64,000 bases of DNA from Marsupella aquatica (GCA_973895155.1 OZ316894.1:1938457-2002456); one strand, 5' to 3'; numbered from the stretch's first letter, positions 24,710 through 38,882 are shown. Translations and numbers: made by a program. The notes: generated by a model from the sequence alone, not told the origin.

Positions 24710-26323
24710 GTGTATGTCAAAACACCCATTCAAGGCCCCAATCAAGGTAGGGCTAATATATGATCCATACGAACCCTAGGCTCCACAGTGTAAGGGTAAT
24801 ATTGGGCGATACGCAGACATACACCCTGATCATTCACATACAGAGTTAAACCTGATCACAAATGCAGCTGGAGCGTTGGTTGGTTCTATGATGTCACACA
24901 TGCTATTTGTCTACATTGTTCACCTGACATGTTCAGTTGCCTACATGACAGAAGTAGAGTCCACTTTTGTTGGTGCAGAATCATTTAATTATTGTTTATT
25001 GAGTTGATACGGCAGCAGGTAAGTAATACTTTACATATCCATGACAAGACAAGGCATTGGGTCCACACATCCTTATTGACTTCTCATTTAAATAGTTTTG
25101 TATGTTGTGAGTCCTTGAATAGCGGATTGGAGTCCTTATCACACCACAACAGAAGTTTCTATTAGTCATTAGTACAGTAGCGCTACTTTAATCTATGCTA
25201 CGTTTATCAGAGCACATTTACATGGCTTAGATGTAAAATCAATGCGGTACATCAGCACTGTGATTCAAACAGCATGAAGTAGACCATTATCCAGGGCAAA
25301 AGTATGGTTGAAATCGGGCCATACTACATCCTCAAAGTCGTCATTCAGCCCCCATCCTTGAGGTGAATCATGTGCCTTAACACTGATTCCAGTTACATGT
25401 TTCTATTGCCATTAGCCGCGGCGGCAAAGGGGAGACATGCATTTATCCTGGGCTAGCATTGATCCAGACTAAAGCTAAGCATATAATGAGTTGAGAAAGG
25501 GAATCATTGGTGAAGAGTACATACCTGTGGAGCCCGTGCCATAGTGCTATGTTTTGTGACTGTTGGTGTAGTAGAAGGAGCGGTGTCACCCTCTCACTGA
25601 GCTTTGTGTGTGTACTTATCACCCTATTCATTAAAACTGGAATTTCTCTAGTCCAGAAGTTGACCTTCAAATTTCTTATTTTACCCCCAAAAGTTCTATA
25701 ACTTGTTCCCCAAAAGCATACATTTTAGTGGCCAAATATACACTTTTTGAGGTCTAAAATTACAATTCTAATGCCCAAATTATTAATTAAATAATTCAGT
25801 TATCAATTATTAATACTTATTAATTAAAAGACATTAAAGTGTTCTTATTATATACAATATAAACAATGAAAAAATAGAATAAGACAATATAATAAATTGA
25901 AATGACCATGATAACCAAGTTACACAAAGTAACACGGAAGGTAAACCGGTGATGTATTATAAAAGTAAAAAACCTATTTTTACAGGCTCGAGACCACGTC
26001 TGCCCCAATGCAGGCTCTAGATGGTTTTGACCGGTTGTTGAATGTATATCAATTACTATGTAAAAATCTATGTCAAGATTATCTCGACCCAAATGTAGGG
26101 TCCACATAATTTTGACCCGTTGTTGAATCTATATCTCTAGCTATTCCCTTTGTAGAGGGTCTAGACCCAAATAACCTTTTTCTGAGAACATATCTACAAG
26201 TAAATGAGGATCAACAGCATCTAGACTCAAATGGATACTACGCATAGCTTCACTCTTTTTTCGAGTAAGAATATGTATATGTACAACTCACATCGTAACT
26301 GTTCAGTGTAGGGTCGAGATAAT

Positions 26324-27598
26324 CTAGACCCAAATCTCATGCTCCTCCACCCCGCATAATTCATTTGAGCAAGTAAACCTAGACCCTGACGGGTCATATT
26401 TCATATCGCGATTACAGAAATTGAGAGGCTTTCTATTCCAGAACTTTGTTGTGAGGTCCCTACACCTCAAGACTTCCAAAACAAATCCCCGATGATTGTC
26501 TCTGTAGGGTCCTGTGTACTGATATCCAATTAATGTCTTTGCAAGGTCGTTGATCGCCTCCTCCGTCAATTTCTCCATTGGTGGTAATTGTTGCACTTCA
26601 TTTTTGATATCCCAGGGAATTTCGTCCGCTGTAACATCCAAGACTATATGGATAACATTGGGAACCCATACCATACTACCCCACCTCTCCGACAACAGAG
26701 CATAAATGGCAGCCTGTTGATCCCTGTCCGATAAAACATTGATCATAGACCACTTTGGATGATTGATAAAAAGATAGTGCTGAAGATTGAAGGCATGATA
26801 CAATTTCCTGAGCAGAGGCCACAGTATTTCTGGAAAGAATGTATCATCCGTGGAGTGATGCGAAAATGAGGAAGGAAACAACCCACAATTCTCTGGATTT
26901 GCAAACACCTTCATTGGAGTGTCATCAAGAAGGAGTGTATTAGTTTCGTTGTATAATCCACCATAACGTTTCCAAACAATCCTCAAATCCTTCAAAAGAA
27001 TATTTGCCTTCCCATCGGTAATGTCAGGCCTCTGGATTCCAGTATCAAATGTATCTTCTTGAGTGAGAATAAACTTGAATTGCTCTCTCTCTTCTTGATT
27101 GAAGATCAAATGAATCATTTCATCCGTCCTGGGTTTCCTTGCACAAGTCCAAATGGCAACATCAAATAATGAAAAAGCTGCGATTAAGAACTCGTGAAGA
27201 TGGGGTCGCTCAACATACATAAAGTTAAACCCTCCACGTCTCCCCCAGTGGACACCATTGACACTTGTCGCACTACGGCGCGGTCCGGAACTTGGCGTTT
27301 TGACAAAATCCCAGCACATTTTGTTGAGGTCAAGAATCAATAGCTTCCGTCTGATTGGACCGTGAAGTGGAGGCAAGGGTCCTGCAAAGTACGAACACCA
27401 ACGTTAGAATTGTGGGAGATAAAACAAAGGAATGCTCGAGACGATCTCGATCATCACAAGTGAATGAACAACAGTCAACATCATACCTGTTGTTTGTGGA
27501 AGGTCAGTAGTTGAAGAAATCTCAGGACATCTTCGGAGATTATTGTCGACGCACTCCACAATTGGTAAGGGCCCGCCTATTTCTGTGAAGGTAGACAT
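26324..27598 (-). CDS. Transposon-borne FCP1/SCP (NIF, HAD-superfamily) phosphatase-like protein; exons 27598-27487 and 27381-26324
   Basis: RRKLLILDLN, YVERPHLHEFL, FDVAIWTCA, KDLRIVW and NTLLLDDTPMK are NIF/FCP1-homology motifs. A 105-nt phase-1 GT-AG intron joins the two exons in frame. The start codon is uncertain. Confidence 0.75.
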
Positions 27599-27652
27599 AA
27601 TAATTTAGACGGCTGAATTTCAGGACAGTTCAAACTAACTTGGGTTTCAACC

Positions 27653-30600
27653 TCACGTGCTGAAAGACCCAAATTCATCTAGAAGGTTATCTCCTAGTTG
27701 GTTTTGGATGTCCAAATTTATCCCTCCGGGAAGGGTCTCAACAAGAGCTGGCTCAGACCAAACTGGCACTAATTTAAACTTATCCATCCTATACTTTCTA
27801 GATCGAATAATCTTCTCAGACTGCTCTATAGAGACTTGTTGACCTTTTGACGGTCCATCAGTCCAAACATAATGAGTAGCACTTGCTTTGAGTGATTTGT
27901 AACCAGTTCTACCGATTTCAGTCCCCGGTTTCCTAACAAAAGGGAGAATTACGGGGCTTCCAGTAGAAGAATCTGTGAAAACAAGCTTATTCTCTGAAGC
28001 GCAAAACATTTGGTCCAAGGGAGAGGACGATGCACCTGCCTCGTCCTGAGGGGGAGTATGGAAGCCACTAGCTTTCTTAGTAGAGAAAATCTCATCCAGT
28101 TGAGGAGGGCTTGGAATTGGTTGGCTAACTGCATCCTGCAGGGTGGATTCCCAGCCAACATCCAAGGTTGAAGACTGTTGTTCACGTTGTGCATCCCCAA
28201 GGCCACCCGATGAAGGAACACTTGGAACATCGAGATCATCTCGAGCATCATTTCCAAATTCAGGGAGTATTTCACCCTCCTCTTCCATGTAGCTTGTAAT
28301 TTTCGGGCCCTCCGTTTTGCGATGCTCTAAATTCTCCGCAAATACTTCCTCATAAACACTGGCTTCCACTGGAGCTATGTCTGCGGCCGCCTCTTCTATA
28401 AGAACGAGGGGACCAGCAGTAATTTCCTCAGATGGTAACGGCTCCTTGGGTGGCACATATAAAACTTGCTTGTTGTCATGAAGGAGCTGAGCAAAGGCTT
28501 CAGTGAATTCCATCTCTTGAGCTGTGTCCGAATACACAAAACAATCCCGACCAAGAATGACACAAGCTTTCAATGTCTGTCCTCCAGAGAAGAAATCCAA
28601 CACTGTATGACCTGGGCACGAGAAATAATCAACAAGACGCTTTGTCATTCGCAAAGGCTTTGCTCTCGGATTTACAAAGCCACCACGCCGACCGACCATC
28701 TCATAAGATGGGGCCATCTTCTCCAAAACTTCGACATCAACAGTGGATTCATCGAGCTTCTCTTTCCCCTTTGATTGGTCTTTGTTGTTCCCAGTAGGGG
28801 CCTTCAAAGGCAAGACTGTGAAGTCTTTGTCCCACTTCTCACTGTAGTTCCAGAACGCATAAAAGTCATCAAAGAAAATTTGGGACCAGTCTGGTTCCTC
28901 TTCACAACAAATTCCCCCAAAGATGATTGAGTCCCGAGCTCCAATGAGAAAATCTCCCTCCTCCTTGGGCACCTGATCACGGTAGTAGCTCCCGTACTCC
29001 AGCTTCATGTGCACTTTCTTCTCACGACGAATCTTTTCAAAGGCACTCTGAATCTGGCCTATCAATGGGCCTTGACGGACAAAAAAGATTACTAAGACCT
29101 CCTTCAAGTTCGCCATCTGCAAGCAATACTCCAGCAAGACAAAAATTTCGGCATCTGTCCACTGCCGTTGTCGAATACGACCAAAATTGACAATGGAGAG
29201 TGGACACGTCCTTTGCACCGAGTCAACAACCTCAGGCTTCATTGTCCTCATCAAATTATCGCTAAAAAATGTGCGATAAGGAGTATCCTCCATTGAAGGC
29301 AATCCGCCAAATACCTTGCAATATATCTGCTCAAGCCTCACAATGAGACTTTGCGGAAATGGGTCTTTTGGCCTATTTCTTTTTAGGAGGTTGGAAATCC
29401 AAACCTCTCCAGCAAGTTGTCTAAGTTTGGGCAACTCACCACGATCCATAAATGCAGGCAACAATTGAGTTAGCTCAAACCAAGTGAGTGAATTGGTAAA
29501 CCGATCCGAATACTTCAAAATGAAGTACTCCACAATTTTTACCCTCAGCTTGGTCATGACTTTGAAAGTATGAGCCATATCACTCATTGATTGAATATCA
29601 GATTTGTTGGCTTGGTCTTTCTTCAATAAAACCTTCTGTTGTTGAACGGCAGTAAAAACTTTCAGAATGTCGTCATTACTCAGGTCTCCTTCAAAGCATC
29701 TAAACAATGCCGGCGTAATCATTTTTGTTGTCCGGGCTTTCCCGTTTATTTTTGAACCTAACTCCCCTAGACCATCCGGAAGAAGTCCCTTGACCCAATC
29801 GATGCACATTTGTCTCCAAGTTCGGAAGAGGTTCTCATCCGAAAACAACAACCAAAAAATATTCCTCAGATCGGATTTTCCAGTCGTTATTTTGGCAAGG
29901 GCCATAAAATCCTGGTCCAAACAGTACAAAACAAATCTGAGGCTCGAGACGATCTCGAGGTAGAATTAAGGAACTATGATAAAATTTATGGGGAATACAT
30001 GAAGATAAATCAAATACAGAAACTTGACCTTGAGGCTCGAGACAATCTCGAGCTCGAAGTGGATTTGAGTTCAAATATACCTAGAACTTTTGATGATCCG
30101 TTAGTCTATTGGACCCAATCACGGGTCTCTCCGGACGGCCACACTCGTCAAACTGTCGACGCGCATGGACCATAGTATCAAGAAAACAGGACTCATACTC
30201 CATTGTCTTATTAACAGCATTTGCCCTTTGTGAGTGTTGAGCAAGTATTGTCCTTGGAGTTCTGTCCGAAAGAATTCGTGACTTTCGATATTGCAGACTC
30301 TTCGCGACCTCCTTCAACTTTGCATCGCTCTTAGCCCAACCTATGATCCAAACAGCTACTTTTGCCGAGTGTTGTCCACTGATTGCAAGGAACTGCACCT
30401 TCTTATTCTTAACACCCCACTCAAACTCCTTTCGATCCTCAGCAGTATTCTCATAATGGAGCAACTGCAAACTCTCTCTTGAATACGGAATTAAATCACC
30501 ACAGCTGGTACCATTCCAGGGTTTCTAACCATGGATTTTGCGACCTCCATGGCATGGTCTTTATTGAACATCCTATAAACCAAAACTGCAGATGGCGAAT

Positions 30601-32573
30601 CTATACTGGTGACAGGAATGTCAAAAGTTTCATTCATGCCAAATGTGTAATACTCCTCAATCTCCTTAAGAACTTCGGCTCCTTCCTTAACGCTCTTTTC
30701 TCCCGGAGCATCTCCTGGAGTGCCATCATCATCGGTATGTGCATTCACACCCGAGGAAGATGCCGGAATGAGATCTACCTTGGGCGATGCGGACTTTTTT
30801 GGCGGATGAGCCTTCTTCGATTTAATTTTGGGTTTGTCAACCCTCTTCCTCTTTTGAGACACCTTCGCTTCATTTTTGTCCGAACCGGAGGTCTTGTCTC
30901 TTGCAGCTACGGATTTTACTTTACCTGTTTGTCTCCGATGAGACAACACCCACTTTTTACAAGCATCCTGGTCAAATTCTCCTGCTCCGAACACAAAATC
31001 AGGGGATATAGATTCAAACTCCCCCAATTTGGATTCCAACATTAGTCTCAAAACCTTCCACGTGAAAGGAGTCGTGAATGCATCATCGCGATCAAGCCCA
31101 TACTTCCGACAATAAAGGAATCCAAAAATTATGTCCGCTCCAGATATAGGAGTATCTTCTAGCAAATTACTTGTAGTGAAACCCTCGGGGAAGAAACCCA
31201 TTGATATCACGCTCAGTTGTTTCCTGGCTGCACGTTCAATGTTAAGATCGCAAGAGTAGTTTTTGGCGTGAAGTCTAATTAGAGCCCACTTCCCTGTTTC
31301 GTGGTTCTCCACCGTCAAAACCATGTCCTTACCGTTACTCGTCACAATAGAAACAACAGGCCCTAGAAGGTTGCACACCAGAGGATCGATTGATGGAGAC
31401 CTCGTCTTCACACAAATAATAGTTCCTTCCATGTCTTCAGTTTCAGCAAGCTCAATGGCCCAACAGAATCCAAATAAACTCTGTCCAGGGCAGGAAATCT
31501 CAATTGCATGTTCATCTTCGACTACCAGATTAGGCGATCCCAATTTCGCACCTGTACAGCAAAAATGTAGCAATTGTCAGGAACATGTACTACAAAACCA
31601 AGAAACAAATAGGTGGCTCGAGATGATCTCGATCTTCAGTTTACTATTCAGACATGTTCCAATGCCATTTCATCCGTGGAATTTAAAAAGAGATTTCAAA
31701 CCCAAGAATCCCAGGAAACACAATAGGCTCGAGATGATCTCGAGCCACCATCTGTTTAAAAGAAAAAGATAAGGGCTCGAGATGATCTAGATCCACATAT
31801 ATATCAGTTGAGGCTTTATTCCAACTAGTCCAAAAGGCAAGCTTGGATCACATTGAAAAGGATATTAGTAATTGAAGTAGACAACAAGGAGTCCTTCCAA
31901 CTGGAAGAAATTGGCCAAGGGAGACGAATGAACATAAGGGAAGACGGTGTGGGATATATTCGGCTCGAGACGATCTCGAGCCTAACATATCAAATGAGTG
32001 ATCTGAATATCATATTCAACAATTAACATCATATTCAATCAACGATAAAAAATCCACTTTCTCCATTAACTTCGGATACCCACAAACCCGTTCGGATGTC
32101 AATGATCAGAACGAGTTGGAGGGCACAGAAGTCCCTGGAGGAAGGAAATTTTAGATATTTTGGATATGATGTTCAATTTTGAAGGGTAAGGGTTTCCAAC
32201 TTGAAGAAATCTCACTAGGTCACATGAAGGAATTGCATATTGGCTCGAGATGATCTCGAGCCTCATGCCACTTACATCAAATGCAAAATCAATTAATAGA
32301 TCACAACTTTTGAAACAAAGTATTGGAGAAAACATCAATAGGCTCGAGATCATCTCGAGCCTCAACGGCATCCAAGGAATCCAAAAACAAGTGGACCAAT
32401 TGAAGCTCGAGACGATCTCGAGTTAAACCTGAACAGAACAAAGATGAAGAATTACGTTTAATGGTGCGATGGATCTGATGTGCTGAGTCTAGATGGGTCT
32501 GGAGCTCTTTGCCAACGGTTGCAAGGTTGTACTCAGCGAAGTCCTCCTTGGAGAAATCTACAACAGTCGACAT
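27653..32573 (-). pseudogene. Transposon-borne spliced gene, ParB-like domain + beta-class N4C/N6A DNA methyltransferase-like domain; exons ~32573-32456, 31551-30081 (frameshift near 30500, TAG at 30083-30081), 29911-27653
   Basis: The splice junctions are in phase (AAA C|GT GCG and TTC TAG|gt...ag|GAT TTT). ParB-like segment: FDIPVTSID..YRMFNKDHAMEVAKSM..PAV-DLIP..FLAISGQHSAKVA. MTase-like segment: NPRAKPLRMTKRLVDYFSCPGHTVLDFFSGGQTLKACVILGRDC. One frameshift and one in-frame stop interrupt it. Confidence 0.65.
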
Positions 32574-33721
32574 GGCTGGTGATGAGAGGAACGTACTACG
32601 GGCTGAGAACTTAAAACAAATCTCGAGCCTAAAAAGAAAATCTCGACCCTATCAAAGCTCGAGCCTAAACACAAAATCTTGACCCTATAAAATCTCGAGG
32701 AAAAAACCTAATCTCGATCCTCTGCAATCTCAAGGCTAATAGAAGGATCTCGAGGCAAGAGCGCGAAACGATCTAGAGGCAAGGAGGCAAGGGACGCGAG
32801 GAGGCGAAGAGGCAAAGAGGCGAGGAGGCAAATGTGAAAATGGGGAGTTCAAAACCCCTGAAGCCACTATAAGCCCCTCGGGGGTCGGCCTTGGCCGTGC
32901 CAAGCGTGCCAGGGCTCGTGCAGGCTCAGGCAGGCTGCCACGCAACCTACTGAGTGCGTACAGTCATTATTACGGTCACACGTGTTGTCATTATTGTTAT
33001 CCGTACTTCAGCCCTGCCGCAAGTTTAGCCGTGACACAAGTTCAACCATTCCGTCTTATTGCCCTTTTTGTCTGTCAGGGTTTTATATATTGCTTCTCCT
33101 TGCTCTTCAGCGGGTCATTCTTCTCATTTCGTTTCACCGCTCGCTCGTTTCTTCCTCTGCCTCTCTGCTCTCTCTCCCTCTCCCTCTCCCTCTCTCTGGC
33201 TCTAGATTTGTGCTCTGATCTCTTTCTGTTGTTCTTTTCAAGGGTTTTGGAGTCTATGTTTGTGTTTAGGATATTTTGAGAAATTGTCATTTTAAGCCCC
33301 GAAGGAGGTCTAAAATAATTGAGCTCCTATCTTTTAGAAAACCGAACCTTTTCAGCTTATACTAATGTCGGTCAAAATCCATTTGGAAGCCTTTTCCCTC
33401 TATTTGATGGCCTTTTAGAAGCTTTTTCTCAGTGTCTGGAAGTAAACTGGGAGCCTACTTTCTTAATTGCACCAAATCATTCCTCTAGATCATCTAGAGC
33501 CATTTATATGTTCTTATTTTGGGTGGCTTATTATTCCTAATAGTTTCTTTGTCAAATACAATGTCCTTTTTGGCTCGAGATCATCTCGAGTCATAAGTTT
33601 GGTCCTCAAACTTATTCACTTTCCCCTTCTTTCTAATGGTGCATTTGGTTTTCCTTCTTATAATAAATGTTTTTAGAGTGTCGGAGGTATAGAATCTTAG
33701 TTCGATATTCAGTGAGATTCA

Positions 33722-33950
33722 TATTTTACCTCGAGATCGTCTCGAGCTAAATACTTCTGAATTTTTACATATTGGTGTTTTTGGTCCCTTTTCTACCTCG
33801 AGATCGTCTCGAGCTAAATACTTCTAAATTTTTACATATTGGTTGTTTTGGTCCCTCTTCTACCTCGAGATCGTCTCAAGCTAAATACTTCTGAATTTTG
33901 ACGTATTGGTGTTTTTGTCCCTCTTCTACCTCGAGATCGTCTCGAGGTAG
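33722..33950. repeat. 67-bp tandem repeat (~3.4 copies), each unit carrying the palindrome
   Basis: tacctcgagatcgtctcgagctaaatacttctgaatttttacatattggtgtttttggtccct repeats at a period of 67/67/66. Confidence 0.9.
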
Positions 33951-34078
33951 AAGAGCTTCTTATTTTCTCTATCACACAATTTTGTGGGATAAACTTCTAC
34001 ACTTGGGTTTTTGTAGTCACTTTACCTCGAGATCATCTCGAGGTAACTACATCCAACGGTTTGGGCCACATTTTCAAA

Positions 34079-37000
34079 ATGGGGAGTTTCTCTCGAGGGG
34101 ACAAGGTGTGCCTCGTAATCGACGGAGTGGAAGTTGCTTGTGGGACGGTCCTCAAGGTTGACCCGGGTGACTCAGTGCGTAATGTTGATTTGGGAAGTAA
34201 TCGTATAGGAGTTCTCATTGAGAAGTGCTATGAGGGATCACGGGAAATTCCTTACCCTTTGCCGCCGATCAGGACCCTGTTTGATGCTGTCGACTCTTGC
34301 ATTATTTGGGATGCCCCTTTTGCATATTTGAAGTCACAGTCAACTCCAGCGACAACGAAAATGGATGCCTCCTGTTCTACAAAGGATACGGTTCCGGGTT
34401 TTGTACCAGAGAAATCGTCGGTGGAAAGTTTTGGAGACTCGATTGTATCTGGCGATGAAGTCGAGGTCTGGATCGGCAATCAGATTGTGGCTCGTGGATT
34501 TGTGTTCAAGACGAATCCCAATGAGACATGTCACAATGAAAGACTTGGCACTTCTAGGATTAGTGTGAAAATATGTGAAGTTTTTCAAGGAAGGGAGAGG
34601 TTACCCTTTCCTCACAATGGAGCCGATACTGTTCAGGAAGCATTGGATACTTTTGTATTGTGGAATTTAAAGGATGTTACTCGGAGGAGTTCTTCCCGGG
34701 ATATGCTAAACAACCTGTCCAGACAGGATGTTTTTTCAAATTATAATTTCAAGGATTATAGTTTGCGTTCTAATTGGATGACCGAGGAGGTGGAATTGTA
34801 TGCTGAGGATAATCGGACCAAAGTGGGGGTTGGCATCATCACAGTTCCTTTCGAGTCAGGTGCAATTGATGATGATGTTCTTGGACCAGATCACGTTGGG
34901 GTTGCTGTCACACGCGTGATTGACCCTCTATTTTTCCCAAATATCTCCCCGGGAGTGCCTGGTCTTGTTAAGTGGGCCGTCCGTTCACTTTTGCTGATAT
35001 CAAGGGGTATTTTTCTTCTGGATCTCATTGAAGAGGTTTCTCCGAAACCAATTATTGATGGTCGAGATCATCTAGAGGTAGATATGAAAGGTGACACTGA
35101 GTTTTTGAAGCGCCCGTATAATTTCATCAAGAGAACAAAGGTCAACCCAGATGAAAAAAGGAAGAAGCACTTGGAGTCTCGGGCGATACTGAAAATCACA
35201 GAGGAGGAAATCGACTCCATCCAAAGAGAAGGTTGTTGTAAGTTGAAGTGTTGCCTCAGCATGCCGAGAGAAGACCTACAGGAGATAAGGAGGGAATACC
35301 ATGGGATGTCAAGCGACAACAAAACCAGTCACATTCTCACTCTTTTTGGCTGTAGGGAGAAGGAAGTGGAGACAAAAGGATATTTTGTTGTAAGAAGTAG
35401 ACTTGTTTGCAAGGGTGCATTTATTAAAATGCATGGATTCAGCACTGCCAAGTATTATGATTACAAAAATCAATATGAAGCAGGTTGCACGGTTGGATTC
35501 CACGGAAACAAGGGTTCACACAAGACACGGGGAAGCACCTTGCATGCTCGTGCTTTGTTGGAGTCCATTCTAACCCAAAACGGAGAACCCATGCCGCATC
35601 TTCCCTATGGAGGGTCTCACGGGACTGACACGGTTGAGTACAGACTTCCATCTTGTTTCACGAAGAAAGAGATTTTTGAGGAGGTATACTCAAAAATGGA
35701 ATTAGATGGCTACGTGAAGGTGAGTGAAAACACTATGTATAAACTCTGGAGTGAGTCCTTCATGAATTTTGACTTTCACAAGGGAAGTGCATTTGCAAAG
35801 TGTACACTTTGCACTGAGTTCAAAGATCAGTTGATGCGGGAGAAGAGAAAGAAAGAGCGTTTAGAGATTGAGGAAAGAAGAGCTCGCCATCTTCGTGAGC
35901 AAATGTCTAGGAGATATGTTTACTATGCTCATAGGGTTCTTGCGAAGAAGGATCCTGAGAACTATCTTTGCATTATACATGACAAGATGGACCAGGCCAA
36001 GACATGGATCCCTAGGTTGGTCCCCACTCCTAAATCATTGTCTGGTAGTGGTCAACCGCTCCCCATTGCGCTCACTGGGATGTTGACCCATGGAAGGGAT
36101 CCCGGAGTGTATGCTCACTTCAGTTTTACTGGGCTTTGGCCAGGAGATGCAGACTTCACAGTGACATCATTGGCCAAGTGCCTTAGAGATCTGGAGGATT
36201 ACAAGGGGGACAAATCTGGAGACCTCCTTGAAGGATTATATTGGGCTGCAACGAGGCCAATTTTTCAATCTCTTTTGGACTTTGAAGCATTTCTCGCAGG
36301 TTACTTAGAACCCAAAAAAGTCTCAATTGCTAGATTTCAAGGAGCTGAAGATGACCAAGACGACTTTGGTGTTGATCCCAAGGCTACGTCTACCTCTTTC
36401 AAACCATTGCCAAGGCACCTGACCTTGCAAATGGATAATTCAGGGAAAGATAACAAAAACCAGTACGTGATGGCATTTTGCAGTGAGCTTGTTAGTAGAG
36501 GGGTTTTTGAAACAGTGCAGATGTCGTTTCTCATGGTTGGTCACACCCATGAGGATGTCGATGCATTGTTTTCAAAAGTATCCAACCAAGTGAAGTACAA
36601 GGAGGTTTCTACCCTCTTGGGGTTGATGGCTGAGGTTTGGGAGTGTGAAAGCATTCATCCTGTGCCACGGTTGATCCAAGAGGTTGCAGCTTACAAAGAG
36701 TTTTTGAAAACTTTCAAGGTAAAAGACATAGAGGGTCACTCAAAACCAGTGGCATTTCTTTTCTCTATGAGAGATAATGTTCCAATATATCAATACAAAG
36801 CACATGTGAAACAACCTTGGTACCCTCCAACCGGAAGGTCCATTTGGAGAACTGATTCCAGCACCAATGCTCTCATTTTACCAGAAGGTCAACCGTTTGC
36901 AAAACCCATCTCCGGGGATGTACGAGGCAAGGTTGAAGAAATCATCCCATTCCTTAATCGTTACATTGAGTTTTTGAAGAAGAGCTGTAAGGATGAGACC

Positions 37001-37768
37001 TCTACAGCATATCGTGAGCGGTTTCCTTTGGTGAAATATTGGGAGATGGTGGTGCAAGTATTATCTGGGGAGCTTACAATTGAAGGGGAGGCAGAAATAC
37101 AGTTAGCATTGACATATGAATTCTGGCCAAAAACCAACCACGGAACTGGTTACAAGGTTAATAGTACAGGAACCTCTGAACCATTGGGGGAGCCTAGTAG
37201 TAGTACACAGAATCCACAAATGGTGGAGCTTCAGAATGAGTACCTGGAAGAGATGGAGGATCAAGCTGCAACATTTGTTGGTGCTCGACACGAGCGAGAA
37301 CTTGCACGTTGGATTCCTCTGCAGGACATTCAAGAGGGTCACTTTGTATTTCTCCGTCCAGAGGATGAATGGGAAAAGAAGAATGGGAAAGAACGTTTCT
37401 GGTTGGTGAGAGCTTTGGGTGTTGTGGACCCAAACCATGAGGTTCCTTCAGAAGACTTGCAATGCAATGAGAATTCTCCTACTAGTACACGGTATGCTCC
37501 TATGTTCCAAGTGCAATGGTGGAGGCCTAAACATGGTAAGCATGATGCACCGGATCATGTGCGATATTCACGTTGCTTTCAGACCACTAAGACTTGGGAG
37601 GTGGATCCTGGGTTTGACAATGCCACTGAACGTTGGCAATTTGCTAATTCTGCTATGTATGGATTCAAGTCACGCTCTAGAGAAGAAAATATAATTGATA
37701 GAGGTTTGACCATTCCCAAGAATGTTTTGAAAACACTCAAAACCTACATGGAAGGGATTGTTGAGTAA
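34079..37768 (+). CDS. Sola-like DDD transposase (~1230 aa) with three N-terminal Tnp1/En-Spm-like repeats and a C-terminal BAH/Tudor-like segment
   Basis: Uninterrupted ORF inside the TIRs. Cys motifs GCCKLKCC, VCKGAFIKMHGFS and KCTLC. Putative catalytic motifs IIHDKMDQAK, LTLQMDNSGKDNKNQY and FLMVGHTHEDVDALFS match the DNxxxxNKN...GH pattern I associate with Sola1-type RNase-H-fold transposases. Confidence 0.8.
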   Translation: MGSFSRGDKVCLVIDGVEVACGTVLKVDPGDSVRNVDLGSNRIGVLIEKCYEGSREIPYPLPPIRTLFDAVDSCIIWDAPFAYLKSQSTPATTKMDASCSTKDTVPGFVPEKSSVESFGDSIVSGDEVEVWIGNQIVARGFVFKTNPNETCHNERLGTSRISVKICEVFQGRERLPFPHNGADTVQEALDTFVLWNLKDVTRRSSSRDMLNNLSRQDVFSNYNFKDYSLRSNWMTEEVELYAEDNRTKVGVGIITVPFESGAIDDDVLGPDHVGVAVTRVIDPLFFPNISPGVPGLVKWAVRSLLLISRGIFLLDLIEEVSPKPIIDGRDHLEVDMKGDTEFLKRPYNFIKRTKVNPDEKRKKHLESRAILKITEEEIDSIQREGCCKLKCCLSMPREDLQEIRREYHGMSSDNKTSHILTLFGCREKEVETKGYFVVRSRLVCKGAFIKMHGFSTAKYYDYKNQYEAGCTVGFHGNKGSHKTRGSTLHARALLESILTQNGEPMPHLPYGGSHGTDTVEYRLPSCFTKKEIFEEVYSKMELDGYVKVSENTMYKLWSESFMNFDFHKGSAFAKCTLCTEFKDQLMREKRKKERLEIEERRARHLREQMSRRYVYYAHRVLAKKDPENYLCIIHDKMDQAKTWIPRLVPTPKSLSGSGQPLPIALTGMLTHGRDPGVYAHFSFTGLWPGDADFTVTSLAKCLRDLEDYKGDKSGDLLEGLYWAATRPIFQSLLDFEAFLAGYLEPKKVSIARFQGAEDDQDDFGVDPKATSTSFKPLPRHLTLQMDNSGKDNKNQYVMAFCSELVSRGVFETVQMSFLMVGHTHEDVDALFSKVSNQVKYKEVSTLLGLMAEVWECESIHPVPRLIQEVAAYKEFLKTFKVKDIEGHSKPVAFLFSMRDNVPIYQYKAHVKQPWYPPTGRSIWRTDSSTNALILPEGQPFAKPISGDVRGKVEEIIPFLNRYIEFLKKSCKDETSTAYRERFPLVKYWEMVVQVLSGELTIEGEAEIQLALTYEFWPKTNHGTGYKVNSTGTSEPLGEPSSSTQNPQMVELQNEYLEEMEDQAATFVGARHERELARWIPLQDIQEGHFVFLRPEDEWEKKNGKERFWLVRALGVVDPNHEVPSEDLQCNENSPTSTRYAPMFQVQWWRPKHGKHDAPDHVRYSRCFQTTKTWEVDPGFDNATERWQFANSAMYGFKSRSREENIIDRGLTIPKNVLKTLKTYMEGIVE

Positions 37769-38212
37769 GTCAAATGTTTTTTAGTAGTCACTCTGTCAGA
37801 GTGAGGGAGTCTAGTATGTCAATTAGTTTGGAATTAGACATGTCAGAGTGAGGGAGTCTATGTCAATTAGTTTGGAATCAGACATGTCTTTAGTACTTAC
37901 TGAGTGTTGGTTAGTACTAAGTACTAGTATATCTATTTAAGGAACTAATTATTATAATATTTTGGGATACTAGTTTGAATAGGTGGAGGTAATTGGACTT
38001 GGATACCTTTATAATTGCTTCAATTAATTATTATATCAATACAGACTATATATTACATGAAGTCTTAATATCCATGATAGGATGTGAGTGCCTCTTAGTA
38101 CTGTCTAGTAAACCTTAGTTTCAACTCGAGTTGCTTAGAATGTACTAACAAATTACTTGTCTGAATGGATATTTAAACTAAACCCTAAGTAGAAGGTTAA
38201 TTTAGCTAGCTA

Positions 38213-38316
38213 AGGGTAGAGATCATATTGAAGCTTTACTAGTTATATGGGTAGAGATCATATTATTTGAAGCTTTACTAGTTATATGGGTAGAGATCAT
38301 ATTGAAGCTTTACTAG
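38213..38316. repeat. 35-40 bp tandem repeat x3 in the transposon 3' region
   Basis: gggtagagatcatattgaagctttactag(ttatat) is repeated. Confidence 0.8.
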
Positions 38317-38882
38317 ACACTTATATTCTATTAGTCAAATTGAATCAATGTAAGTAAATTCTACTTCTTATCCAACATATTTTACATTATTATCACCCAA
38401 ATGTTTTTCTTTAGAATCCAAATTAATATTTCATTTTCTCCTATGTACAATCTTGATCCCCCAAATGTACAACATCTGGTGCCCAAATGTACAACTCCCA
38501 CTGCCCAAATGTACAATTCTTGTGCCCAAATATTTTTTTTTGTGCCTAAATGTCCAAAGATCAAAGAATTTTCCAGTTTTAATGAATAGACTGATACTTT
38601 GACTGATATTGTGCGGTCCCGCCACAGCACTTGACAGAAAGCAGTGTCCCACGAAGTCGAGTAGCATGTGAAGGGTGAATATAGTGCCAGACTATGGAGA
38701 GGGTGGTAGCATAATGAGATCAAGAGCCAGAGCTGAAGCGGGAGAATAGTGGAGGCAAAAGATCCTCTAGTAGAGACAGAGTGTACAAGTGTGGAGCACA
38801 ACATATAGGCTGGTACTAGGGAGACTAAAAAAGCGCTACTTTTTTAGGGTAGCCGTCAGAATGGTGGCTGTTTGTTAGGTTA

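Follow-up and report, generated by a model that had tools for sequence, protein, structure and literature searches.

A transposon accessory gene in Marsupella aquatica that likely joins a ParB/DndB-like domain to a beta-class methyltransferase fold without DPPY

The stretch of Marsupella aquatica DNA analysed here (64,000 nucleotides, GCA_973895155.1 OZ316894.1:1938457-2002456; hereafter the window) contains a 12,978-bp insertion that carries, on its minus strand, a large gene running from 32573 to 27653. Our reading, to which we assign a probability of about 0.6, is that this is one transposon accessory gene, damaged by two lesions in this copy, whose product likely combines a ParB/DndB-like domain with a beta-class amino-methyltransferase fold that lacks DPPY, and which is predicted to bind the palindromes of its own element and not to methylate them. 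The original prediction, made from the sequence, had joined four separate minus-strand open reading frames (ORFs) into one gene of about 1280 amino acids. These ORFs are present between 27653 and 32648, and a single gene of that size is borne out (530 plus 752, or 1282 codons, with one missing base counted). The order of parts also stands: an N-terminal domain, a basic linker, a ParB/sulfiredoxin (Srx)-like core, a helical region and a methyltransferase-like fold. Every motif that had been quoted was found, namely QKRKRV (30839-30856), IPVTSI (30602-30619), FLAISGQHS (30366-30392), SIVNFGR (NFGR at 29177-29188), VNPRAKP (28655-28675) and VLDFFSGGQ (28577-28603). The joining of all four ORFs by in-phase GT-AG introns does not hold, since one junction is a frameshift and one exon ends in TAG; candidate GT-AG introns are found at two junctions only. 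The features of the gene and its palindromes are as follows.

27653-29965 (770 codons stop to stop), 30081-30524, 30491-31576 and 32301-32648, minus strand: open frames of the ParB-like/methyltransferase-like gene.
32456..32573, minus strand: predicted first exon with ATG, 39 codons plus 1 nucleotide (nt), from sequence only.
31552..32455, minus strand: predicted intron 1, GTAATT..TACAG, 904 nt with seven palindromes within, likewise read from the sequence alone.
30084..31551, minus strand: large exon with an N-terminal beta-rich domain, the basic KRKR linker and the ParB/DndB-like domain, broken by a 1-base deletion at 30498/30499.
30144..30619, minus strand: likely ParB/DndB-like (DGQHR-like) core, IPVTSI to HARRQFDE, including FLAISGQHS (conserved motif, DndB match, Atlas neighbours).
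30081..30083, minus strand: in-frame TAG, the last codon of the large exon, Q or K in relatives (sequence and relatives).
29912..30080, minus strand: intron 2, GTATAT..ACCAG, 169 nt with two palindromes within (splice signals and relatives).
27653..29911, minus strand: last exon, 752 codons plus stop, with the helical region, the methyltransferase-like domain, an acidic disordered stretch and a conserved C-terminal domain (open frame, five homologues).
28472..29278, minus strand: beta-class amino-methyltransferase fold, residues ~212-480 of the last exon (VIA, Foldseek).
29177..29188, minus strand: motif IV position, NFGR where DPPY is expected, after strand 238-242 of the model.
28577..28675, minus strand: S-adenosylmethionine (SAM)-binding block, from VNPRAKP (motif X region) to VLDFFSGGQ (motif I, non-canonical FSGGQ) (PF01555, M.RsrI, hhalign).
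27656-28006, minus strand: conserved C-terminal domain of ~100 residues after the acidic stretch.
27435..35077, no strand: palindromes at up to 2 mismatches, 19 in number, confined to this span inside the element (pattern search of the window).

The candidate ParB sites are copies of a 17-nt palindrome, CTCGAGA-NNN-TCTCGAG, also given as CTCGAGAT-N-ATCTCGAG. With at most 1 mismatch there are 16 copies, where 100 shuffles lead one to expect 0. Of the 19 found at the looser threshold, intron 1 holds seven and intron 2 holds two; seven lie between the divergent start codons of this gene and the presumed transposase, one lies between the gene and a neighbouring phosphatase ORF, and the last exon and the transposase ORF have one degenerate copy each. 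The alternative that survives best, tentative in our judgement and yet to be taken seriously, is that these sequences bind the transposase, belong to a promoter, or are simply hairpin-prone repeats giving rise to internal deletions, and are not sites of the ParB-like domain. It gains from the degenerate copies in the transposase ORF and last exon, and from a 67-bp tandem array of palindromes between the divergent genes (33724-33966), directly upstream of the transposase ATG. It gains also from the deletion joints of other copies of the element, which we followed in contigs of four public runs (X1-X4, from two organisms; short contigs of unstated kind): four such joints abut palindromes. One of them, 27452>34023 in X4 (depth 3861.8, with 31 other letters between), has both breakpoints adjacent to palindromes (27435-27451 and 34026-34042), and means that some copies are without the whole ParB/methyltransferase-like gene. 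The other three, 27385>31724, 33865>34024 and 31637>31712, end between a few and about 20 nt from a palindrome. These joints count against our reading, as the palindromes could be recombination or transposase sites. Set against this alternative, the palindromes cluster in and around the ParB-like gene, with 9 of the 19 in its two introns; their 8-nt arms have the format of bacterial parS; the true ends of the element carry a different repeat, GCCCAAATGT; and the Plavaka transposon of a red alga, as outlined in the part of its description available to us, likewise pairs a ParB-like gene with inverted-repeat arrays. We continue to treat the palindromes as candidate ParB sites.

The C-terminal half of the protein had been described as methyltransferase-like, and on structural comparison a beta-class N6-adenine/N4-cytosine (N6A/N4C) methyltransferase fold holds, on a model of moderate confidence. 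The AlphaFold model of the last exon, built from a shallow alignment, has a mean predicted local distance difference test (pLDDT) score of 51, rising to 60-90 in the helical region and in the first half of the methyltransferase domain. Foldseek against the PDB gave 26 matches at E <=0.001 (best E 1.7e-5), and all rows listed as far as rank 24 are beta-class N6A/N4C DNA methyltransferases. The top 11 rows in VIA are amino-methyltransferases (Z 8.6-11.9, model residues 210-483), among them eight beta-class enzymes at Z 10.2-11.9: MboIIa is best (Z 11.9, 163 residues aligned, root-mean-square deviation 4.8), CcrM (Z 11.4), the rotifer N4CMT (Z 10.7), RsrI (Z 10.6) and PvuII (Z 10.2) rank below it, TTHA0409, BceJIV and HpyAVI fall within the same range, and type III Mod subunits come next. 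The secondary-structure order of the model fits the beta-class motif order (IV-VIII, target-recognition region, X, I-III), and the positions of DPPY in CcrM and MboIIa agree with the VIA ranges.

Sequence comparison places the same assignment chiefly on the C-terminal block. PF01555 matches the large ORF with a score of 27.4-27.5 bits, just over the cut-off of 26.7 (E 3.9e-6), and does so over profile positions 160-207 of 221 only; the other three ORFs gave no Pfam matches. A search of 5.8 billion clusters returned five relatives of the last exon (27-39% identity, 63 invariant columns), one of them from the liverwort Calypogeia fissa, and a PF01555 match at E <=0.1 is found in all six members of the resulting alignment (the window copy and the five relatives). 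Compared with the PDB, the family profile finds M.RsrI over the block from motif X to motif I (E 9.8e-7), and hhalign to two plasmid methyltransferases gives probabilities of 93% and 88%; in the hhalign and HMMER alignments a one-residue gap or a Q falls on the last glycine of motif I. A tblastn search of plasmids with the methyltransferase domain yielded 20 weak matches (E 0.02-0.8), confined to the C-terminal block, 16 of which lie under annotated DNA methylases or methyltransferases; both of those fetched are stand-alone enzymes.

No DPPY or SPPY is present in the window, in agreement with the original prediction, and NFGR sits at the motif IV position after strand 238-242. Comparison with relatives gives the same picture. 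Proteins P0001 to P0005 read DFSR, DFSR, DFGR, DFTR and DLAR, the metagenome relative L001 reads DFAR, and by eye P0084, P0123 and P0111 have DFAR, DLTS and DFTV. The family consensus is D-[FL]-x-[RSV], mostly DF[SGTA]R, and (D/S/N)PP(Y/F/W) occurs in 0 of the 10 sequences read. The asparagine of NFGR is private to the window copy: T>C at 29188 restores aspartate (DFGR) in the majority of other copies, at depths of 2330.7 of 3228.9 in X1, 840.4 of 1100.8 in X2, 2724.4 of 3064.3 in X3 and 1340.5 of 1375.9 in X4. Motif I is FSGGQ and not FxGxG, invariantly so in all six aligned members and in L001, while five of the six retain NP..KP and an acidic residue following strand 2. The SAM-binding half is thus under constraint and the catalytic loop consistently non-canonical, and the family is probably not an ordinary amino-methyltransferase. 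L001, a 1.8-kb contig at 29% identity, with an in-frame stop (1210-1212) midway through its methyltransferase-like ORF, was the only related locus found among metagenome contigs; viral contigs gave none.

That the protein is an active amino-methyltransferase of DNA whose motif IV is unusual, guided by the ParB-like part and writing N6-methyladenine (6mA) or N4-methylcytosine (4mC) on the element, seems to us unlikely. Several points tell for it and against our reading. The entire beta-class fold is retained and its SAM-binding half strongly conserved; the first aspartate of motif IV is kept, in a motif that is conserved and not decaying; and this combination of a conserved D with a well-kept SAM block would fit an unusual active enzyme as well. 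Loss of amino-methyl transfer is read here from motifs, on a model with the modest mean pLDDT given above and a domain of which only the C-terminal block aligns by sequence. Methylation is, moreover, predicted by the authors who described a comparable Ectocarpus element, in the passage available from PMC12477816. What speaks for a binding protein is that PP(Y/F/W), which positions the target amino group, is absent from all ten sequences and that FSGGQ replaces FxGxG in every aligned member and in L001. The PP-less relatives METTL14 and MTA9 are inactive partners.

Beyond the acidic stretch lies the conserved C-terminal domain, FCxSxxKLV...HYxW..GP.KG...LG...DE[FY]GS, which the original prediction had omitted; it is modelled in part at pLDDT 70-81. 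At rank 44, a viral fold search lists a giant-virus chromo-domain protein (116 columns, E 0.014), a match not mapped to this C-terminal domain.

The N-terminal half is harder to place, and we regard a ParB/DndB fold for its core as likely, with greater confidence than we hold in the reading as a whole. With the N-terminal alignment as query, a full HMMER search over 1.84 billion representatives gave 118 proteins, and the named ones that were looked up are hypothetical proteins of Riccia sorocarpa. Across 30 sequences the Q and H of GQHS are invariant and the serine nearly so, giving [SD]GQHS overall. The GxxR/DGQHR nucleotide-binding motif has a conserved arginine; here it is replaced by serine. 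The succession IPV..I, R.FN..HV..I..SM, P..ADLIP and F.AISGQHS..AA fits the motif order of the ParB N-terminal domain. From Pfam, a marginal match to DndB (PF14072), the DGQHR family, appears in one of 30 proteins (P0014, E 0.04, 13.4 bits against a cut-off of 29.1). An Atlas structure search with the model of a relative, P0077 (pLDDT 0.50), placed DndB nearest, at a template-modelling (TM) score of 0.56 over 167 aligned residues, a row marked 'under the bar'. Four further rows had clusters that are mostly ParB_N or named ParB (TM 0.46-0.53), so that DndB or ParB clusters make up 5 of the 10 rows; in one more cluster, 18% of the members have ParB_N, and a phage DUF6551 cluster is also listed. 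The Atlas feature search returned ParB_N at 0.90. When the downstream half was compared with viral structures, a phage 'ParB/Sulfiredoxin' protein of the ParB/Srx-methylase type came out best (465 columns, E 4e-6).

Much weighs against this placement, beginning with the loss of the arginine. PF02195 (ParB_N) matched 0 of 119 proteins. ParB was not found in PDB profile searches, NCBIfam, PHROGs or PADLOC, and hhalign to F-plasmid SopB and to a 652-residue ParB gave a probability of 0.2%. All Atlas rows stand 'under the bar' on a model of pLDDT 0.50, and the structure predicted for the ParB-like half (P0006 with 4 sequences, pLDDT 36.9) was unusable. A profile search of the 5.8-billion-protein set with this half recovered family members only, and tblastn of P0014 against phages gave one chance-level match, a DNA primase (E 3). 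Of the ParB/Srx assignment originally proposed, then, the likeness to DndB and ParB_N stands at a marginal level (E 0.04; TM 0.46-0.56), and recognition by profile does not. That the core is not ParB/Srx-like at all, its motifs resembling the family by chance, would account for the uniformly negative sequence and profile searches. We nonetheless hold this to be doubtful, given the matching motif order, a sole marginal Pfam match that falls on the DGQHR family, the five DndB or ParB clusters among the ten structure rows, and a ParB/Srx-methylase protein as the best viral structure of the downstream half.

A separate observation concerns the same region: for P0006 residues 325-505 and P0077 residues 1-215, relatives of 30084-30620, the nearest named cluster by language model is fungal DUF3723, at 0.95 in both cases. 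DUF3723 is a conserved accessory gene of the Starship giant transposons. No paper naming both DUF3723 and ParB was found in the literature searched.

Two lesions interrupt the gene in the window copy. At the boundary of ORFs 30491-31576 and 30081-30524 the window reads ...NPGMVPAV and then GDLIPY in another frame, while the relatives P0006 and P0007 (68% and 64% identical to the third ORF) cross the same point uninterrupted (...NPSQVPAIAELIPY...). Because these relatives read straight through, the junction marks the loss of one base, not an intron. An extra base behind 30498 restores the frame in other copies, at depths of 368.5 of 368.5 in X2 and 1064.9 of 1218.6 in X3. Two intron candidates were tried here and rejected: GTACCAG, the only GT..AG at the junction, is too short at 7 nt and lies where the relatives are colinear, and a weak alternative donor CAAAA/GTTCTA with the acceptor CCTCAG/A (slashes marking the splice points) is in frame but inserts residues that the relatives lack. 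The second lesion is the TAG that closes the large exon (...TTC TAG/GTATAT). With a 1-base deletion and an in-frame TAG, the window copy is disabled, as a pseudogene or truncated form.

Intron 2 (30080-29912) is well supported, because the ORFs of relatives end at its GT donor and liverwort proteins cross it. P0006 ends in ..QKYQVC and P0007 in ..SKYQVY, and ..[FWY][QK]V.. recurs in many of the 30 aligned relatives; such endings are those that an ORF caller yields on running from a phase-0 CAG or AAG into the donor. The predicted proteins P0002 of Calypogeia and P0071 and P0084 of Riccia read through into the methyltransferase half. Both halves lie in one predicted protein in P0071, P0084 and P0123 of Riccia sorocarpa, as well as in P0111; the PF01555 match of P0071 is weak. 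Among the joints listed for the contigs of the four runs, none fits either predicted intron.

In this lineage, the halves may instead be two separate products, with the TAG at 30081-30083 as the normal end of the ParB-like part and the ATG at 29905-29903 as the start of the methyltransferase-like part. Position 30083 has no majority difference from the window in the four runs at min_share 50, which goes against our reading, since a TAG common to many copies would separate the halves. The predicted proteins P0001, P0003 and P0005 have their initial M no more than a few residues from the junction, and the 752-codon exon is wholly open though the part upstream is broken. We find this improbable all the same: the Riccia proteins and P0002 cross the junction, relatives have Q or K in place of TAG with a GT donor directly after, and ORF callers choose the first M regardless. 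One X2 contig also starts exactly at 30084, hinting at a variant base at 30083. A single interrupted gene remains the better account.

That this gene is the cargo of a mobile element is confirmed: it sits inside the 12,978-bp insertion, which has terminal inverted repeats (TIRs), a target-site duplication (TSD) and many copies. The remaining features of the element are these.

25614..25642, no strand: left end, ACTT TSD at 25614-25617 and 25-nt TIR at 25618-25642 (92% complementary to 38571-38596; TSD read from the sequence).
38571..38599, no strand: right end, TIR at 38571-38595 and ACTT at 38596-38599 (inverted repeat search, flanks read).
26324..27403, minus strand: NIF/FCP1-like phosphatase ORF, the second accessory gene (PF03031, E 7.6e-16).
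34079..37768, plus strand: DUF7869 ORF, intact, 1229 codons, presumed transposase (PF25273, E 7.4e-44).

The TIRs, flanked by ACTT on both sides, delimit an insertion that contains all three genes, in a window of eukaryotic look (GC ~0.43). The ParB/methyltransferase-like gene lies head-to-head with the DUF7869 ORF, whose open frame extends over 1288 codons, and adjoins the phosphatase ORF. Calling the DUF7869 product a transposase relies on a domain of unknown function and on context, a further point against our reading; the ORF had no match among PDB sequences, and DUF7869 is not mentioned in the literature searched. Its N-terminal part (34079-34900, plus strand) shows, by eye, two similar segments of ~100 residues, ..V..G.....G.V.K..P........LG..RI.V.I.......E.P.P..... 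The phosphatase ORF may have an ATG mini-exon in 27404-27604, and a C-terminal-domain (CTD)-phosphatase-like gene on a transposon is unusual. The three genes travel together elsewhere too, because ParB-like pieces are joined to DUF7869 in P0102 and to the NIF domain in P0118, an unrelated record. The subterminal regions (25650-25800 and 38390-38560) each hold several copies of a GCCCAAATGT-like motif, unlike the internal palindrome, and these are likely to be transposase-binding repeats.

Thousands of contigs at 90-99% identity cover 26000-38500 in the four runs, so the family is high in copy number and recently active. The window copy is ~2% diverged from the best-matching runs (share of words 0.54). 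At 30511, a loose end of 255 nt in X2 is similar to the left subterminal region, which points to a deletion derivative. Between 29150 and 30560, 13 of 20 X1 majority differences have A/T in the window and G/C elsewhere, and the D-to-N change in motif IV is of this type; the bias is of the kind that deamination of methylated cytosines would leave behind in a silenced copy.

The overall design is already known from algal transposons, of which the gene described here is apparently a land-plant member. In Ectocarpus, Sola1-1_Ec32 carries a 1104-residue ParB-like plus DNA-methyltransferase gene on the strand opposite its transposase and, according to the supplement, has a 4-bp TSD and a transposase best matched by Sola1-1_PPa_tp (PMC12477816, from the sections available). 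Both are large DNA transposons with a 4-bp TSD whose large protein, of 1104 residues there and ~1282 here, is ParB-like and of N6A/N4C methyltransferase type and is encoded opposite the transposase. They differ in host, ours being a land-plant-like genome whose named relatives are only the liverworts Calypogeia fissa and Riccia sorocarpa; in size, with 13 kb against 21.5 kb; and in the NIF phosphatase gene also present here. Motif IV is non-DPPY here; the comparison covers the Ectocarpus gene by its description and our DUF7869 ORF by its Pfam match. The second counterpart, PAG3 of the Bostrychia Plavaka element, has a ParB-like domain beside inverted-repeat arrays, and self-binding was proposed for it in the portion seen of bioRxiv 10.1101/2025.02.11.637652. 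Like our protein it is a transposon accessory protein with the ParB-like domain at its N-terminus and inverted-repeat arrays adjoining, whereas, on that same partial description, its effector is a 2-oxoglutarate (2OG) oxygenase, a gene of its own encodes the methyltransferase (PAG2, with SET) and the transposase is of another superfamily.

Bacterial systems offer the separate parts and, in fused form, their order. Phage and plasmid ParB_N plus N6_N4_Mtase fusions share the arrangement of a ParB-like part followed by a methyltransferase. M.RsrI, CcrM and M.MboIIA share the beta-class fold, the motif order (IV ... X, I) and the HP..KP / LDFF.G block; they have (D/S)PPY and FxGxG in contrast to DF[SGTA]R and FSGGQ here, where introns, a linker resembling a nuclear localisation signal (NLS), an acidic disordered stretch and additional domains at both termini are present as well. 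DndB/DGQHR proteins (PF14072) resemble the N-terminal core in having GQH after a beta strand, in forming the nearest Atlas cluster and in giving the only marginal Pfam match, yet serine stands here for arginine, the match in 1 of 30 proteins is far below threshold, and there is no dnd context. Among eukaryotic proteins, MpDN4MT1a/b of Marchantia and the rotifer N4CMT are likewise bacterial-type amino-methyltransferase folds, with N4CMT among the structural matches in VIA; as far as the accounts available to us go, those are host genes with (T)SPPY and shown activity, and ours is motif-less and transposon-borne. The original suggestion that elements of this kind could be a vehicle for amino-methyltransferases in early land plants is, for active enzymes, unlikely. 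The Marchantia 4mC enzymes carry TSPPY (bioRxiv 10.1101/2021.02.12.428880, in the part seen), and this family does not.

We can propose how the protein would work. A 12,978-bp cut-and-paste transposon would carry the accessory gene for its own benefit. By analogy with ParB and parS, the ParB/DndB-like core would recognise the palindromes of the element, and the methyltransferase-like domain, having lost amino-methyl transfer, may serve as a SAM- or DNA-binding module. Directed to the nucleus by its KRKR linker, the whole protein would mark or organise element DNA there, to the advantage of the element. A much bolder extension, which we think quite improbable and more so than any of the alternatives above, is that large eukaryotic cut-and-paste elements of unrelated superfamilies carry a ParB/DndB-fold protein for self-recognition, loaded on their internal palindromes in the manner of ParB on parS and combined in this land-plant lineage with a dead, SAM-binding methyltransferase acting as a shield or decoy against, or a partner of, the host DNA-methylation machinery. 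If this were true, the DUF3723 likeness would mean that Starships use the same device.

In the literature searched (ParB with liverwort, Marchantia and transposons), no land-plant report of a ParB-like plus methyltransferase transposon gene was found, and accessory genes of this kind have so far received one paragraph each in algal genome papers. The present family offers a recently active, high-copy element with 19 candidate binding palindromes and a conserved SAM-binding half in which the catalytic motif is replaced. It also counsels caution against taking such genes for the origin of 4mC or 6mA in the genomes of plants. With such a family in hand, the self-marking of element DNA becomes a question for the bench, to be asked of palindrome binding, SAM binding and methyl transfer.

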